Shown: positions 18,274-43,788 of the stretch, in pieces
How positions within the stretch are numbered: position 1 is the first letter of the stretch
Layout of the letters: the number at the start of each line of letters is the position of its first letter
DNA from: a virus
Virus record (IMG/VR): IMGVR_UViG_3300045005_000110
DNA: 45,535 nt
Direction: 5' to 3' (one strand)
The notes under the pieces: model-generated
The model's database searches: none
What the model saw: only the letters and a program-made list of their open reading frames with translations
Told to the model about the DNA's origin: nothing
Position numbers and translations under genes: made by a program

Positions 18274-18342
18274 TGTTTCCTTTGCAAATCGGTTCATCCT
18301 ATCTAGTCCCCAGACCGGCTATACTTCAAAAAAGGGGATCAC

Positions 18343-18969: not shown

Positions 18970-20076
18970 ATGATCAGAAAGATGTGCGGGCTGGCGCTGG
19001 CCTTTACTTTGCTGTTCGCCAGCAACGCTTATGCCGGCCCGCCCAAGTCCAGCAGTGGCAGTTCGAGTCGCCCCAGTTTCAGTGGCGGGAGTAGTAAGCC
19101 CGCGTTTTCGGGCGGCAGCAGTAGCGCTCCGAAGTTTAGCGGAGGAAGCAGTGCCGCTCCCTCCAGCACCCCGAAGTTCAGTGGCGGGAGCAACCCTCCC
19201 ACCAGTACGGCGAAACCGCCGGCAACGAGTCGTCCGAGTTTCAGCGGCGGGTCGAATCCGCCGACAGGTGTCGCAAAGGGCAGTGCGACAGACAAGCCGG
19301 TTTTTGGAGGCGGGTCTACCTCACCTCCAAACAAGACGGTGACGACGACACCGATTCAAGGTCGTCAGCCGACCACCGTGAGCAAGAAACCGGCGGCTGA
19401 AACGTTCGACAAGTTGTCGGGAACCGAAGCCCGAAAGACCGAGAGCCGAAAGTCCTACGAGAAGTCCGAAGCACCTGCGGCGTCGTACAAAACGCCTGCC
19501 GGTAAAGACGTGCCGATTGCCAAAAACGATAAGTCTGCCGACTATCTGCGCGGCCGGCTGGACGAGTCGCGATGGCAGAACCGCTCGCAGCGGACGGATA
19601 CCTTCTACGGGTCGTACTACAGCCGCTACCCGTCAACGGTGATCGTCCACTACAACGACTCCTACCACCCGTACTGGAATTACTGGTTGGCGAGTCAAAC
19701 CATCGACGTGATGTCCCTCTGGGTGTACCACCACCAGATGTCGATGGACCAAGCTCGACTCAACGCCATGTACGCCCAGAACGCCGACCTTCGCGCAAGG
19801 GTAGCCGCCCTCGAACGGCAAGGGATTCCGAGAGACGTGACGTACACCCCGCGAGGGGTTGACGCCGACATGATGTACGATGACGGGTACGTCAACGCCT
19901 GCTGGAACCCCCGGCCGAAACAGGTTGACTACTACGAGTACGACGATCCGCCGACGCACCATTCGTCGGGCGGCGGAAATGTAGGAAAAGCCTTGCTCTG
20001 GATTTTCGTCTACATTCCGCTGATCATTATCGGGCTGGTTGGTCTATACTGGCTCGTGTTCCACTACCGCTGGTAA
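18970..20076 (+). CDS. Secreted protein with a membrane anchor and S/G/P-rich 'xFSGGS' repeats (368 aa)
   Basis: N-terminal signal peptide (MIRKMCGLALAFTLLFASNAYA). Repeats PSFSGGSSKPAFSGGSSSAPKFSGGSSAAPSSTPKFSGGSNPP… C-terminal TM helix (LLWIFVYIPLIIIGLVGLYWLVF). GGAGG SD. Confidence 0.7.
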   Translation: MIRKMCGLALAFTLLFASNAYAGPPKSSSGSSSRPSFSGGSSKPAFSGGSSSAPKFSGGSSAAPSSTPKFSGGSNPPTSTAKPPATSRPSFSGGSNPPTGVAKGSATDKPVFGGGSTSPPNKTVTTTPIQGRQPTTVSKKPAAETFDKLSGTEARKTESRKSYEKSEAPAASYKTPAGKDVPIAKNDKSADYLRGRLDESRWQNRSQRTDTFYGSYYSRYPSTVIVHYNDSYHPYWNYWLASQTIDVMSLWVYHHQMSMDQARLNAMYAQNADLRARVAALERQGIPRDVTYTPRGVDADMMYDDGYVNACWNPRPKQVDYYEYDDPPTHHSSGGGNVGKALLWIFVYIPLIIIGLVGLYWLVFHYRW

Positions 20077-22053: not shown

Positions 22054-22072
22054 TCCCTCTCCTCAGCCGGAA

Positions 22073-25320: not shown

Positions 25321-25460
25321 AGCCCCTAGTCCCATTTCGCTGGCGTGGGATGTTGTCCCGAAAAGCGGTTTAACCGACGAAGTAGGGCATCGTTGGCACT
25401 TTGGGGAAGTCAGCGGGCGGCAGGCGGTGCCGTAGCGGGTGCGCACCCGTCCGTAATGCC

Positions 25461-25500
25461 AGCAGGCGACTTCGGTTGGCCTGCTGGCATTTTCTTTAAC
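25461..25500 (+). terminator. Terminator-like hairpin
   Basis: gccagcagg-cgacttcggttgg-cctgctggc followed by ATTTTCTTT. Confidence 0.4.
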
Positions 25501-25511
25501 CGGAGACACAA

Positions 25512-27243: not shown

Positions 27244-27618
27244 ATGCAGGAGAGATACTGTACCGAAAACGGGAAAGTGTCTCATACCTCTGAAAACCAA
27301 GCACGGCAAGCACTGAGTTCTCTGAAACGCGCTAAGGGGTATAACGGACACGTTTGCGTCTGTGCATTCTGCGGATTCTTTCACGTCGGACGACTGGGCC
27401 GGCGTACCGTTCGCAACAAACTCATGAAGAAGAAGGAGAGGAAGAAACGTGTTAGACTCACTCGATCACGCATTACGATCTACATTACCGGCCTTACTGA
27501 AGGACCGGAGCAAGTGGGACAGCTTGATTGTCAACCGCCGGAAACCCCACACTTACCGGGTCTTCACGACTCTGGAGAATGGGGATCGGATCTGTCTCCA
27601 CAAGTTCAACCCGTGTGA
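27244..27618 (+). CDS. Small zinc-ribbon protein, paralogue A (C-terminal extent uncertain)
   Basis: 'CTENGKVSHTSENQARQALSSLKRAKGYNGHVCVCAFCGFFHVGR' is paralogous to the protein at 28075..28257. The open frame continues to 27618 and overlaps the next gene by 170 bp. Confidence 0.45.
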   Translation: MQERYCTENGKVSHTSENQARQALSSLKRAKGYNGHVCVCAFCGFFHVGRLGRRTVRNKLMKKKERKKRVRLTRSRITIYITGLTEGPEQVGQLDCQPPETPHLPGLHDSGEWGSDLSPQVQPV

Positions 27619-28078
27619 CACGCACGAAGCGTTCGCACACCCGCACCCGTGGCCCGGTGCCTTCATCATCCTTCAGGGTGCCTACCGGATGAAGGTGGGT
27701 TTCAGCAAGGATCGCACCGACGAATCGCCCGGACAGGTCGCCGAGTTCATTCTGCGGGAACACTCGGCCTACGAGATCGTCAACCCGCTGACGTGGCACT
27801 CGGTGGTCCCGCTCACCACGACGTACACGGTCATGCTCAACGCCGCCCCGTTCCCGCCCGACGTGGCGCACACGAGCATTCGCAGGACCGGCGGTAAAGA
27901 CCTCGACAAGATGCCAGAAGACGAACTGGTCGATCACCTCCAAGTGTTCGCCAACCTCGTCGGCAAGTTCCAACTGACCGTGTGTTCGGCGTGCGACGGC
28001 AGCGGCGTCGGCTCGCCCGCGCACCCGTGGGGTTCCCCGAAGTGCGGTGAATGCAACGGAACGGGAGAGAGGCTGTGA
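27449..28078 (+). CDS. Cupin-like protein with a C-terminal DnaJ-type CxxCxGxG zinc finger (209 aa; GTG start)
   Basis: 'AHPHPWPGAFIILQGAYRM' looks like a cupin β-barrel. The C-terminus carries 'CSACDGSG…CGECNGTG' (2× CxxCxGxG). Confidence 0.55.
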   Translation: MLDSLDHALRSTLPALLKDRSKWDSLIVNRRKPHTYRVFTTLENGDRICLHKFNPCDTHEAFAHPHPWPGAFIILQGAYRMKVGFSKDRTDESPGQVAEFILREHSAYEIVNPLTWHSVVPLTTTYTVMLNAAPFPPDVAHTSIRRTGGKDLDKMPEDELVDHLQVFANLVGKFQLTVCSACDGSGVGSPAHPWGSPKCGECNGTGERL

Positions 28079-28257
28079 AACGGTGTCGTCACACCGGCAA
28101 ACACTGTCACTCGGAAGGGGCTGCGGAAGCACAACTCCGCAGCCTCCTTCGACTCGATCCTTCTTACAAGGGCCACGTCTATTTCTGCGGCTGGTGCGGT
28201 ACTTACCATGTCGGCCGTAACAGCCCCAACAACAAGAACAAGTATCGCCGAGGCTAA
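28075..28257 (+). CDS. Small zinc-ribbon protein, paralogue B (60 aa)
   Basis: GTGA overlap start; 'CRHTGKHCHSEGAAEAQLRSLLRLDPSYKGHVYFCGWCGTYHVGR'. Confidence 0.5.
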   Translation: MKRCRHTGKHCHSEGAAEAQLRSLLRLDPSYKGHVYFCGWCGTYHVGRNSPNNKNKYRRG

Positions 28258-28896: not shown

Positions 28897-28925
28897 GTCT
28901 ATATTGGGGGCATGTGGTTTCCCCA

Positions 28926-29243
28926 ATGAGGCGAATCATGTGGACCGATGAACTGGTCGCGCGGCTGAAGAAGTACGTCGAGGCCAACAGGTTCTTCGTC
29001 GTCAAGTACCGTGGCAGCCGCGTCTACAACGTGGACGAGCGAAACAAGGAGTACAACGACACCGGCTGGCCCGCCTACTATCTCAGGCCGTGCTACGACG
29101 ACCCCTGTGACTTGGAGAAGACTCAGCCGTCCGACTTCCAAGTCTTCCTGCTCAAGCCGGTGGAATGGACGTTGGACGAGCCGGATTGGAGCGAGGCCGA
29201 CGCCGAATCTTGGAACGAATACGTCAAAGCAACACAAAAGTAA
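28926..29243 (+). CDS. Hypothetical protein (~105 aa; start uncertain between 28914, 28926 and 28938)
   Basis: ORF 28914..29243 preceded by GTCTATATTGG and a 7-bp hairpin. Confidence 0.5.
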   Translation: MRRIMWTDELVARLKKYVEANRFFVVKYRGSRVYNVDERNKEYNDTGWPAYYLRPCYDDPCDLEKTQPSDFQVFLLKPVEWTLDEPDWSEADAESWNEYVKATQK

Positions 29244-29250
29244 TCTTCAC

Positions 29251-29294
29251 ATCCCCCGTAAGTTGGCTTACAATGGAGCCAACTTACGGGGGAT
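29251..29294 (+). promoter_or_regulatory. Perfect 17-bp-stem hairpin with a TACAAT loop; it sequesters the RBS of the downstream gene
   Basis: atcccccgtaagttggc-ttacaatgga-gccaacttacgggggat. The only SD-like GGGGGA lies in the 3' arm, and ATG 29299 is 5 nt after the stem. Confidence 0.5.
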
Positions 29295-29298
29295 CGTC

Positions 29299-29799
29299 AT
29301 GTCCAAAGCAGGCAAAATGCACGGCGAGATCGTCAGCGAAGAAGAAGTCGCGAAGGGACTCGGCTTCGCAAACGTCGATGAGTTCCGCCGCTGGCAAACC
29401 GAACTCGGCCACAAGAAAGGGGAACTCGAATTCGCACTTTCCGAAGCCAAGCGGGAGTCGCGCCGCTTCCGATGGGCCGGAATGCGTATGGAGTTCATGC
29501 TCGGCAAGGCCGAAGCCTATCTCCAGACCGAACTCAACGCCGCCAAGCACCACGTCGCCAAACTCGAAAATTCCGGGGTAATGGCTGAAGGGGCCATGAA
29601 CGAGAACTCGGAGATGGCGGCAGTCAAAGACACCATCGAGATTCTCGAAAAGCTGCTCCTCGGTATCCGCGTCGTCTGCAACAGGGACGTTGACTGGAAG
29701 CACGTTCTGGAAGACTGGCTCGGTCAGTTCAACAAGTCCGATGAAGAGATCTTTAAGGCCAAACAAGCGGCCGAAGCCCAACCGGAAAGTGGTTCTTGA
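29299..29799 (+). CDS. Hypothetical protein (166 aa)
   Basis: Real start ATG 29299 (MSKAGKMHGEIV…). The track ORF 29011.. has a junk N-terminus. Confidence 0.55.
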   Translation: MSKAGKMHGEIVSEEEVAKGLGFANVDEFRRWQTELGHKKGELEFALSEAKRESRRFRWAGMRMEFMLGKAEAYLQTELNAAKHHVAKLENSGVMAEGAMNENSEMAAVKDTIEILEKLLLGIRVVCNRDVDWKHVLEDWLGQFNKSDEEIFKAKQAAEAQPESGS

Positions 29800-29806
29800 A
29801 TCCCGA

Positions 29807-29839
29807 AGGGACACCGGCGTCTATACTGCCGGTGTCCCT
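29807..29839 (+). promoter_or_regulatory. Perfect 12-bp-stem hairpin with the GTCTATACT motif in its loop, upstream of the next gene
   Basis: gggacaccggc-gtctatact-gccggtgtccc. ATG at 29856. Confidence 0.45.
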
Positions 29840-29855
29840 AACTCAAAGGTGCCTC

Positions 29856-30236
29856 ATGAAGACGACACAAAAGCACGTTCAAGCCGGCGCGAACCTGTTG
29901 GACGATCACTGGCCCGGTTGGGCCGGGAAGATCAAGCCGGACGAGATCAAGATGTTCTCGAACCAGAACTGCATCATGGGCCAACTCGCCCGCACCAAAA
30001 AGAAAACCTGTCGCGTCCTCGCGGCCGAGTACGGTATCGGCAACGATTCCCTCGTGCGGTTCGGGTTCGAGGGAGACGGCAGCGAACACGACGAACAAAT
30101 CGCCAATTGGTGGCGAGAAGAGATCAAGAAGCGGCTCGTCGGGCCTACAATCAACGAACTGGACGGCTCGCCCAAGAACGCGAAGGCGAGGAAGAAGCCG
30201 ACCAACTCAGTCAAGAAGGTCGCCAAAAAGAGGTAG
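29856..30236 (+). CDS. Basic K-rich protein (126 aa)
   Basis: Real start ATG 29856. The C-terminus is KKRLVGPTINELDGSPKNAKARKKPTNSVKKVAKKR. Confidence 0.55.
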   Translation: MKTTQKHVQAGANLLDDHWPGWAGKIKPDEIKMFSNQNCIMGQLARTKKKTCRVLAAEYGIGNDSLVRFGFEGDGSEHDEQIANWWREEIKKRLVGPTINELDGSPKNAKARKKPTNSVKKVAKKR

Positions 30237-30241
30237 CTGTT

Positions 30242-30769
30242 ATGGGCCAGTGGTACTACACCGAGATCTTCTTCACCGGGCCGATCCCGAACGAAGATCA
30301 ACTCGTTCGTCTGAACCAAGCGTTCCGGGCGGTCGATCACGACTTCCCGCCGATCACCGTGGCCGGCGTCGAACGCAACTGGCGCAATCCTTCGCTGACT
30401 CTCGAACAGGCTCTCGGCCTGTTCGAGAGGGCCGGCTTCCCCTGCAAAGGCTGGCAAGTCTACGAGGGGCGAGAGGTTTATACCGCCCCGGACTACATCG
30501 CCAGCAAGCTCGACATGTGCGCGGATCTGATGGAGTTCGACAGCCAGAACTGGCGAGAAGCTTACGAACGCGGGCTTACCCCGGAAGAGATCGCTAAGGC
30601 CGAGAACGCCGAACGAACCATGCTGCTCCGCAACTACTTCTTCGAGCAGTCGCTGCGGATGAGGGACATCCTCAAGGTGGTCGATCCCGAAGATAAAGAG
30701 GCCGTGGAAAAAGTCGCGAAACTGTTCAACGAACTCCGCGACAAGTACGGCGAGAAGATGAAAGCGTAA
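30242..30769 (+). CDS. Hypothetical protein (175 aa)
   Basis: Real start ATG 30242 (MGQWYYTEIFF…). The upstream part of the track ORF is an R-rich shadow. Confidence 0.55.
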   Translation: MGQWYYTEIFFTGPIPNEDQLVRLNQAFRAVDHDFPPITVAGVERNWRNPSLTLEQALGLFERAGFPCKGWQVYEGREVYTAPDYIASKLDMCADLMEFDSQNWREAYERGLTPEEIAKAENAERTMLLRNYFFEQSLRMRDILKVVDPEDKEAVEKVAKLFNELRDKYGEKMKA

Positions 30770-30867: not shown

Positions 30868-31326
30868 TTACTTGATCACGAACGCACGCAGTTCCGACAC
30901 TTTTAGCAGCCGCGCCGCATTGACGCGGCTCACCCCGTCCATAACCCGAATGCCGCTGTCGTCGCTGTAAACGATGATTGGCGGCGTCATCTTCCTGAAA
31001 TCGGGACCACGCACCGCCAGAGCTTGAGACTGTTCCAGCGTGTCTGGAGCCTCGCGGCCCAACATCTGGGCGAAAGCTCCCATCATTTCCAGAGTCTTCT
31101 TCTTGTCGCCGGCCGGTACGTTCGCCAAGCTCGCCAACGGAAACATTTCCTGATACGTCACTTCTCGGCGTGCTGCGAGAGCCTTCTGAATAGTGCCGAA
31201 ATCCATCCCCGCAGTGTCTAGACTGCTCGACCGCGACAACACCTTTGCCTCGGCAATGCTCCTGACGGGGCGGTATTCAATCGCTTCGATCCACAACTTG
31301 AAGTCTCTCATGTCGGTATTTAGCAT
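30868..31326 (-). CDS. Hypothetical protein with a ParB/Srx-like C-terminal motif (152 aa)
   Basis: 'PPIIVYSDDSGIRVMDGVSRVNAARLL' resembles the ParB N-terminal-domain GxxRxxA box. The assignment is weak. Confidence 0.45.
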   Translation of the reverse strand: MLNTDMRDFKLWIEAIEYRPVRSIAEAKVLSRSSSLDTAGMDFGTIQKALAARREVTYQEMFPLASLANVPAGDKKKTLEMMGAFAQMLGREAPDTLEQSQALAVRGPDFRKMTPPIIVYSDDSGIRVMDGVSRVNAARLLKVSELRAFVIK

Positions 31327-31358
31327 CCAAACGCCATGCTCCGAAGCTAAATACCCGC

Positions 31359-34297: not shown

Positions 34298-34303
34298 CAA
34301 CGA

Positions 34304-37449: not shown

Positions 37450-37483
37450 GCCTTATTTAGCCGCTCCCGACAATAACTAAGGC

Positions 37484-39052: not shown

Positions 39053-40437
39053 TCACTCCGGTGGTAAGTAGCGGTCGGTAACGTTCCGACCGGGTTTCAC
39101 TTTGATGATGCCGTTCTCTGACGGCGGGCCGTCTTTACCGTACTTGATGTACAAGTAAGTAATGTAATCGGCCGCATGGGGCATTCCGTAAAGCGGCGGG
39201 TGCTGACCCATCAAATTCACAATGTCCGGGTACAAACCCAGTTTGGCACCCGAACGCTTCGTGTCCTCGACTATCGTCAGCCATTCTTTGAAGTTCATGA
39301 CGGTATCTAGCCGCCACGCCGCCTCGTCTTGCAAAAAGAAGCCCCCACAATCCTTACACTTGTACGTCGCCGGGTTCGTGTACACTTGTACGTCGCCGGG
39401 TTCGTGTCGCCATAATAGCTGCCGCCGTTCTCGTGCAGACACACCCGCGTCCCGTCGTCTTCCTTCGGACCAAAATCAATGTAGTCCTTCAACTCCCGCG
39501 CCGGGGCCGGACAACCCAACGCCTTCAACGCCGACTCGATCATGTCCTTCCGGTCCAAACCGTCCACGAACTTCGCCGGAATCCCGCCCAACCCCCAATA
39601 CGCCCCCGCAAACTGCCCACACACCGCACCCGTCGTATCCGCGTCCTCACCCAGATTGACGGCGCGAAGTACCGCCTCATCGAAACTGTCCGCGTCGTGG
39701 AACGCCCACAGAGCCGCTTCCAGAGACGCCACCACCCAACCCGACCCACGAACCATGTTCGGCGTCTTGTTCCGGTAACTCCCCTGAATCACGTTCTCGA
39801 TCAACGGGTCGAATTGCTCGGACTTCCTGGCAATCTGAACCGGCTCCCACTCCGGGTCCAACACCGTTTCCCTAGACTCGCCGTTAATAAGGCCAGCCAG
39901 CACCAAGTTCATATAACGACACGCCGACCGACACTGGTCGCTCGCGTGCGTCACCTGACTGGAGTCTGAGGCTTTCTCGGTGAGAGGGCTGACGTGGCCT
40001 TCGGCTAGTAGATCGGCGGTGTGAATCGCAACGGGTGCCAATCGCATGATGCTGCCGTTGCCCGAAGATCCGGGTGCCGGGTCGCCCGACTTCCAGGGAT
40101 CTCCGTCGCGCTCGAAGTTCATCAAGGCGTCACGGGTCGTACACCCGATGTCGAAACAGAACCCGTTCACGCTGTAGCGGCCGTTCTGGAACCAGTCCAA
40201 GTAACGGCTCATCTGGTCCTTCAAATCCCAACCCTTCTCGCCGATGCTGTGCGCCAACGCCAGAGCCATCGACGTGTCGTCGGTCCACTGGCCTTTGGCG
40301 AGGCTGTGCGGCCCGCCCGAACGGTAGGTGGTCACCAACGCAAACGTTCCGGGGGAACGGAACTCGACCGCAGCCCCCAGAGCGTCACCGATTGCGAGGC
40401 CGTACAGACAGCCCCGTTTCCTATCAAGATTGTTCAT
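39053..40437 (-). pseudogene. ADP-ribosylglycohydrolase (ARH/DraG family) gene with a C-terminal extension domain, frameshifted by a 26-bp perfect tandem duplication
   Basis: ORF 39307..40437 carries ARH hallmarks (GCLYGLAIGDALGAAVEF; TDDTSMALALAHSI; GNGSIMRLAPV; GEDADTTGAVCGQFAGAYWG). ORF 39053..39442 continues the same protein: 'TNPATYKC' occurs in both because 'acacttgtacgtcgccgggttcgtgt' is duplicated at 39356–39381 and 39382–39407. Removing one copy restores a single ~452-aa frame. Confidence 0.8.
39356..39407. repeat. Perfect 26-bp tandem duplication (2 copies) inside the ARH gene
   Basis: Direct read: acacttgtacgtcgccgggttcgtgt ×2. Confidence 0.95.
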
Positions 40438-43739: not shown

Positions 43740-43775
43740 GTATCCACCACACACATAGTAGTGTGTGGTGGATAC
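43740..43775. repeat. Perfect 15-bp-arm palindrome
   Basis: gtatccaccacacac-atagta-gtgtgtggtggatac, with no U-tract. Confidence 0.5.
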
Positions 43776-43788
43776 TATCCAACTGTTG

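Follow-up and report, generated by a model that had tools for sequence, protein, structure and literature searches.

A perfect hairpin enclosing a putative promoter and the ribosome-binding site of a gene in an uncultivated phage

In a 45,535-nt stretch of viral DNA (IMG/VR record IMGVR_UViG_3300045005_000110, hereafter the window), two consecutive genes are each preceded by a perfect hairpin that carries a −10-like hexamer in its loop. On balance, we think it somewhat probable that these are hairpins built over promoters and acting at the RNA level, the first (hairpin 1, 29251–29294) as a switch like those of phage T4 and the second (hairpin 2, 29807–29839) as a 3′ end or insulator with a promoter in it. 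This reading draws on what was observed of the structures, of their conservation and covariation, of the motif statistics and of the computed accessibility; the active promoters, the start sites, the read-through and the timing we infer from the sequence.

The only close relative of the window in the collections is a 46-kb Logan contig (L003/L011, hereafter L011), which is syntenic with it over ~19–40 kb at 46–87% protein identity. Four further relatives (L042–L045), one of them a 586-kb contig of 46% GC (L044), show partial synteny. A direct search with the 166-aa ORF that follows hairpin 1 gave no relatives in viral or metagenome contigs; a homology search gave one close relative (P0002 on L003/L011) and five remote ones with no gap upstream of the gene, and in L042–L045 the 166-aa domain is fused into larger genes without a hairpin upstream. 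The AAA protein of the window has relatives at 30 IMG/VR loci and 71 metagenome loci, nearly all of them AT-rich or at most 65% identical and so uninformative for the hairpins; one that is 85% identical (L065) lies on a contig of 2 kb that does not extend as far as the hairpin region, and a scan of genome contigs gave no relatives of this protein. Megablast against phage records returned no match, Rfam gave nothing at the gathering threshold and only chance-level matches on the hairpins, and Pfam and PHROG gave no family for the 166-aa ORF, for the 126-aa ORF behind hairpin 2 or for the flanking genes.

Read directly from the sequence, the 5′ arm of hairpin 1 (29251–29267, ATCCCCCGTAAGTTGGC) is the perfect complement of its 3′ arm (29278–29294, GCCAACTTACGGGGGAT), giving a stem of 17 bp, or of 18 bp if T29268–A29277 is counted, in which case the loop is TACAATGG (29269–29276). 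In RNA folding, the check that the initial annotation had suggested, hairpin 1 reached −36.7 kcal/mol (z −8.8) and hairpin 2 −26.2 kcal/mol (z −4.9). The stem of hairpin 1 begins 7 nt past the stop codon (TAA, 29241–29243) of the upstream ORF (28938–29243, plus strand). The Shine-Dalgarno (SD) sequence GGGGGA (29288–29293) lies within the 3′ arm (29277–29294) and pairs with an anti-SD, TCCCCC (29252–29257), in the 5′ arm; the ATG at 29299 then opens the putatively controlled gene (29299–29799, plus strand, 166 aa). The hairpin, its 17-bp stem, the SD in the 3′ arm and the ATG were found exactly where the initial annotation had placed them. An AUG within the loop was considered as a start codon and discarded, since its reading frame with respect to the ORF is not the same in the window and in L011. 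The sequence directly 3′ of the hairpin is CGTCATG, with no T-run, and the U-tract of a Rho-independent terminator is thus missing.

The loop of hairpin 1 contains the −10-like hexamer TACAAT (29269–29274). A consensus scan detected TTCACA-17-TACAAT at 29246–29274, in which the −35-like hexamer TTCACA (29246–29251, a five-of-six match to TTGACA) directly follows the stop of the upstream ORF and the spacer is exactly the 5′ arm (29251–29268). The proposed geometry is a fixed one, with the −35 just 5′ of the hairpin, the 5′ arm as spacer, the −10 in the loop, and the 3′ arm supplying the discriminator, the start site and the first part of the leader. An RNA reading through from the upstream gene would carry both arms, its only SD, GGGGGA, would be locked in an 18-bp helix, and ORF 29299–29799 would stay untranslated. 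An RNA from the nested TTCACA-17-TACAAT would begin inside the 3′ arm, at about 29281 (predicted range 29279–29283), lacking the 5′ arm and leaving the SD free, and the ORF would be expressed only when its own promoter fires. Because such a transcript must begin inside the 3′ arm, the −10 has to sit in the loop, and we regard this position as a geometric necessity, not as a sign of hairpin-dependent recognition. A likely source of transcripts reading into hairpin 1 is the promoter-like motif TCTATATTG (28898–28906, plus strand) ahead of ORF 28938–29243; it belongs to the type that we call class B, its L011 ortholog (9682–9690) is an exact TCTATACTG, and no T-run terminator stands between it and hairpin 1.

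The cost of opening the SD region was computed with ViennaRNA on both kinds of transcript. On the read-through RNA it was 16.9–22.4 kcal/mol in the window and 12.9–20.1 kcal/mol in L011, against 2.5–3.5 and 1.9–2.7 kcal/mol, respectively, on RNAs starting 5–9 nt past the −10, which makes an accessibility difference of about 18 kcal/mol at hairpin 1. No difference above 4 kcal/mol was seen in 13 other promoter-gene pairs, including the modules at 15444 and in L044 that are described below, and SD sequestration is therefore specific to hairpin 1. SD occlusion as a general rule for all promoters was considered and dropped, the large effect being confined to hairpin 1. Translational control of the ORF through sequestration of its SD, as the initial annotation had proposed, is supported by this gap and by the compensatory changes in L011.

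The hairpin 1 counterpart in L011 lies at the orthologous position and has a perfect 19-bp stem (CCTCCCGTGTGAGTTCGAT / TACAATG / ATCGAACTCACACGGGAGG, followed by aaatcATG). Six arm positions are substituted relative to the window and all six are compensated in the opposite arm; the alignment of the two perfect stems also has a 1-bp indel. TACAATG is retained in the loop, and TTACAATG is identical despite the six changed stem pairs. The SD is GGGAGG in L011, likewise placed within the 3′ arm with 5 nt between it and the ATG, and the gap between the stop codon and the hairpin measures 6 nt there and 7 nt in the window. The −35 position is occupied in L011 by TTCCCC, at the same spacing and with a weak match (three of six). 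In plain terminators the loop drifts between the two genomes, from AATT to GGATT at 22071/2853 (window/L011) and from TTCTG to TCACC at 34303/14475. Since the stem is compensated and the loop fixed while the loops of plain terminators change, selection appears to act on the loop sequence of hairpin 1 as well as on its pairing, as judged from one close relative. The two genomes also agree in the order of the promoter types that surround the gene, namely class B (28898), −35/−10 in the hairpin and class B (29820), which would fit an insulation of ORF 29299–29799 from class-B read-through.

Hairpin 2 has a perfect 12-bp stem, in which 29807–29818 (AGGGACACCGGC) pairs with 29828–29839, and its loop, GTCTATACT, contains the class-B motif TCTATACTG at 29820–29828, with the −10-like TATACT at 29822–29827; here too the sequence was exactly as the initial annotation had it, including the recurrent motif in the loop. 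No usable −35 was found upstream of this hexamer, and the hairpin is directly followed by AACTCAAAGG, again without the T-run that would make a U-tract. The next ORF (29856–30236, plus strand, 126 aa) starts at ATG 29856 behind the SD AAGGTG (29846–29851). SD sequestering stands for hairpin 1 and fails for hairpin 2, which ends 6 nt before AAGGTG and leaves it uncovered; the computed difference in SD opening was −1.8 kcal/mol, that is, accessibility is unaffected. In L011 the counterpart does not fold (z −0.3), the motif being kept as cgTCTATACTGc with CTGACA 16 bp upstream. As the SD is not occluded and the hairpin is absent from L011, we read hairpin 2 as lineage-specific, probably a 3′-end or insulator hairpin that formed around an existing promoter, and it is the weakest part of our account. 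It would serve as an insulator or 3′ end for the upstream mRNA, the loop holding the TCTATACTG promoter of the next gene.

The window contains about 12 perfect hairpins with stems of at least 12 bp, plus one of 10 bp. In 20 Markov-randomised sequences matched in dinucleotide frequency, perfect stems never exceeded 11 bp, and hairpins 1 and 2 are far beyond chance. A further 13-bp perfect hairpin with loop TCTCG (30399–30429, plus strand) lies inside ORF 30242–30769, a gene absent from L011. Scanning the window and its relatives for hairpin-loop motifs, as had been suggested, brought out more −10-like loops, at 15444–15473 in the window and at 9936–9967 in L044. The first belongs to a module (15432–15478, plus strand) made of TTTACA (15432–15437), 17 bp, TATAAC (15455–15460), which straddles the loop of the 12-bp hairpin 15444–15473, and a following TTTTT(G). 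From its sequence, this hairpin reads as an intrinsic terminator that serves the CCA-enzyme gene just upstream and encloses a promoter. The module is kept in L044 (233–265) as TTTACC-17-TATAAC, where the distal stem covaries and the T-run is retained. In the second, TTGACG-17-TATGAT, the −10 is contained in the loop of an 11-bp hairpin upstream of the AAA gene of L044. Two other contigs carry TGGTATAAT in a hairpin loop (L009, 6698–6730) and TACAAT within a terminator-like hairpin (L031, 180–206). A possible further instance with a weaker match is found on the minus strand of the window (43740–43782), a 15-bp perfect hairpin with the 6-nt loop TACTAT and TTGGAT 16 bp upstream.

Three of the seven window hairpins with a stem of at least 12 bp and a loop of at least 6 nt carry a hexamer that matches TATAAT at no fewer than five of six positions (P = 0.015 by a conservative loop shuffle; P is lower under genome composition, where about 4 × 10⁻⁶ was computed for four or more such loops). 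Among six hairpins with −10-like loops, taken from the window and from relatives of 44% GC or more, four have a −35-like hexamer at exactly 17 bp (TTCACA, TTTACA, TTTACC and TTGACG). Three of the six match TTGACA at five or more positions and a fourth does so at four of six. By our own estimate, a chance origin of this set would be of the order of 1 × 10⁻⁶ and is very unlikely. The correctly spaced −35s in four of six hairpins, together with loops that are invariant across relatives, support the earlier proposal that the loop hexamer is a −10. A generic sigma-70 scan was unspecific (9 sites against 5.3 expected). Conservation between the window and L011 extends to unstructured promoters of the −35/−10 type, TTTACA-17-TATAAC, which is kept in L042–L044 too, and TTGACG-17-TAGTAT.

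The class-B motif, TCTATACTG or (t)TGTCTATACTG, occurs in four exact copies, all on the plus strand within 9–30 kb (9308, 18927, 20043 and 29820), against 0.02 expected, and the recurrent promoter motif of which the initial annotation spoke is therefore real. The motif scan gave near-matches at 18318 and 28898. Outside the window, TCTATACTG is confined to the closest relatives (L011, L042 and L043); its distance to the start codons downstream is about 20–45 nt, and no consistent −35 accompanies it. The copy at 20043 sits inside the 3′ end of a coding region, yet it is kept in L042 and L043. Another short motif, GCTAAATA, has four exact copies (13867–13874 and 31346–31353 on the plus strand, 31317–31324 and 37454–37461 on the minus strand), each placed 2–5 nt ahead of a start codon; the palindrome TATTTAGC...GCTAAATA, which it forms in the two divergent intergenic regions, is conserved in L011. 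It may be a third promoter class that gives leaderless mRNAs, or an initiation signal.

The window is densely coding, mostly on the plus strand from 7 to 32 kb, and encodes a CCA-adding or poly(A) polymerase, an AAA ATPase, an ADP-ribosylglycohydrolase, a GmrSD_N domain and an RNA-repair HAD domain. Among its genes, with the largest ORF at 679 aa, neither a sigma factor nor an RNA polymerase domain was found. A 679-aa protein (7217–9256, plus strand) carries a major-vault-protein shoulder domain (E 7e-21) and, as a weak match, a vault repeat; such a protein seems unusual for a phage. Since an identical 166-aa protein is found on contigs of up to 254 kb and homologs of the AAA protein on IMG/VR viral contigs of up to 459 kb, the window would be a piece of a huge phage.

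Several other elements were observed along the window. An intergenic element of about 170–190 nt (25321–25511, plus strand) is conserved in six contigs (the window, L011 and L042–L045); RNAalifold gave 43 pairs, 13 of them with compensatory changes, no Rfam family matched, and the element ends in a hairpin with a UUCG-type loop (25455–25491) and a T-run, which makes it a candidate for a structured non-coding RNA of a new kind. Two small paralogous ORFs rich in Cys and His (27244–27618 and 28051–28257, plus strand) have in common a motif like GHV.(C/F)C..CG..HVGR; the ‘intergenic’ stretches in which they lie show high conservation in L011, and neither ORF belongs to a Pfam family. Tandem repeats are present at 1–544 (273 bp × 2, 87% matches) and 1395–2314 (252 bp × 3.5, 78% matches), and the first ~6.9 kb scores poorly under a codon model trained on the remaining window. 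An exact 127-nt direct repeat is found at 44103–44229 and 45237–45363, 1134 bp apart. Near the 3′ end of the ADP-ribosylglycohydrolase gene (39307–40437, minus strand), an exact 26-bp tandem duplication (39355–39406) is not a multiple of three and therefore shifts the C-terminal frame of the protein.

As described in passages of two papers on T4 (PMC3014915; PMC2988022), the genes e, soc, 49 and I-TevI have an inhibitory helix over the ribosome-binding site on long transcripts, and a promoter inside the helix-coding DNA produces transcripts that lack the 5′ strand and are translated; segB and mobE of phage Aeh1 fall under the same type of control. By analogy, the arrangement at hairpin 1 matches that of the four T4 genes, with an SD in a stable helix on the long RNA, a putative nested promoter and a computed accessibility switch. 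The SD GGGGGA is indeed paired in a stable helix on the upstream RNA, and the same holds in L011. The two systems differ in the promoter, which in T4 is a single-element late promoter, TATAAATA, whereas that of hairpin 1 looks like a two-element −35/−10 promoter with the whole 17-bp spacer as the 5′ arm. Moreover, the stem of hairpin 1 is perfect over 18–19 bp, and its carrier is an uncultivated huge phage unrelated to T4.

Because the perfect stems of hairpins 1 and 2 contain no G-U pairs, pairing in RNA and pairing in DNA are indistinguishable from these two hairpins alone, and the palindromes, being centered on the −10, might also act on DNA, as an N4-like cruciform presenting the −10, as a supercoiling-sensitive −35/−10 switch or as the operator of a dimeric regulator. 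We hold this to be very doubtful. The promoters of the N4 virion RNA polymerase, a giant single-subunit enzyme packaged in the virion, have a 5–7 bp stem and a 3-nt loop with conserved stem and loop bases and are recognised as extruded hairpins. The present hairpins are like them in combining a promoter element with an inverted repeat in the DNA, but their stems are of 12–19 bp, they have no common stem sequence, and their loops of 6–10 nt are of a size that disfavors cruciform extrusion. The −35 at 17 bp, moreover, only makes sense on linear duplex DNA, and the hairpin-dependent promoter for which the initial annotation had cited N4 is disfavored for this reason as well. As for an operator, all arms differ among the hairpins and from their orthologs while complementarity stays perfect, and the lack of a common arm sequence argues against a common protein site. 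The strand-specific T-runs on the sibling hairpins are an RNA-level signature, and the SD/anti-SD logic works at the RNA level. Taken as RNA structures, both hairpins could be mere terminators or 3′-end protectors, whose AT-rich loops mimic a −10 and whose occlusion of the SD is incidental. Most long hairpins of the window do directly follow stop codons, and canonical T-run terminators stand at 9270, 15444, 22071 and 25455, but hairpins 1 and 2 have no T-run, their loops are invariant where terminator loops drift between relatives, −35s at 17 bp are very improbable by chance and the SD placement is conserved in L011, so that we consider this explanation unlikely. Rho-independent terminators with an overlapping promoter are a closer likeness for 15444–15473 and for L044 233–265, each with a GC-rich stem and a T-run after a stop codon, than for hairpins 1 and 2, which lack the T-run; our literature search found no specific named family of the ‘terminator with promoter in its loop’ kind.

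It is also conceivable, if not very likely, that hairpin 1 is an RNase III site, at which cleavage of the stem would free the SD or would separate and stabilise two mRNAs; in that case the loop hexamer would owe its importance to something else. RNase III cleavage frees the SD in the lambda N leader and separates and stabilises mRNAs at the T7 R-sites, and the enzyme needs about two turns of RNA duplex. The perfect duplex of 18–21 bp in both phages is close to that length, and hairpin 1 lies between two ORFs without a T-run, a long intergenic duplex beside or over the ribosome-binding site as in the T7 and lambda N leader sites. It departs from those sites in having no internal loops and a conserved loop hexamer, the invariant TACAATG loop and the −35 at 17 bp being left unexplained, and the other hairpins are too short, with 11–13 bp in hairpin 2 and the siblings. 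Judged by stem length, an RNase III site seems possible for hairpin 1 (18–21 bp) and unlikely for hairpin 2 (12–13 bp), and such cleavage would be compatible with our main model. Translational coupling, which we find quite improbable, would have the ribosome that ends at the TAA (29241–29243) melt the base of the helix and expose the SD, so that ORF 29299 would be translated only when ORF 28938 is. The spacing from stop to hairpin is conserved and the 5′ arm has the anti-SD right at its base, as coupling would have it. From known ribosome footprints, a terminating ribosome is estimated to reach ~3–4 nt into the stem; about 14 bp would stay intact, and neither the conserved loop hexamer nor the −35 is explained by coupling.

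Beyond the RNA-level hairpins that we favor, a broader conjecture, to which we give little weight, is that this clade of huge phages builds perfect palindromes on promoters, using the spacer as 5′ arm and placing the −10 in the loop, as a general module that silences or stops incoming RNA, launches a transcript and possibly switches the promoter off through a supercoiling-sensitive cruciform, the perfection of the stems perhaps being maintained by template-switch correction and not by selection alone. If true, this would be a dual-use module in which the same 30–45 bp serve three roles, the cruciform breaking the −35/−10 register. The general understanding of such control would be unchanged by our results, the mechanism being one long established for T4 (reviewed in PMC3014915). 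If confirmed, hairpin 1 would add a comparative example outside the T4 family in which expression is tied to promoter choice via an RNA hairpin. For these genomes, the findings would provide handles for annotation, namely two promoter types (TTTACA-17-TATAAC-like and TCTATACTG), a rule by which the boundaries of transcription units can be recognised, and a means of predicting genes that are insulated from read-through.
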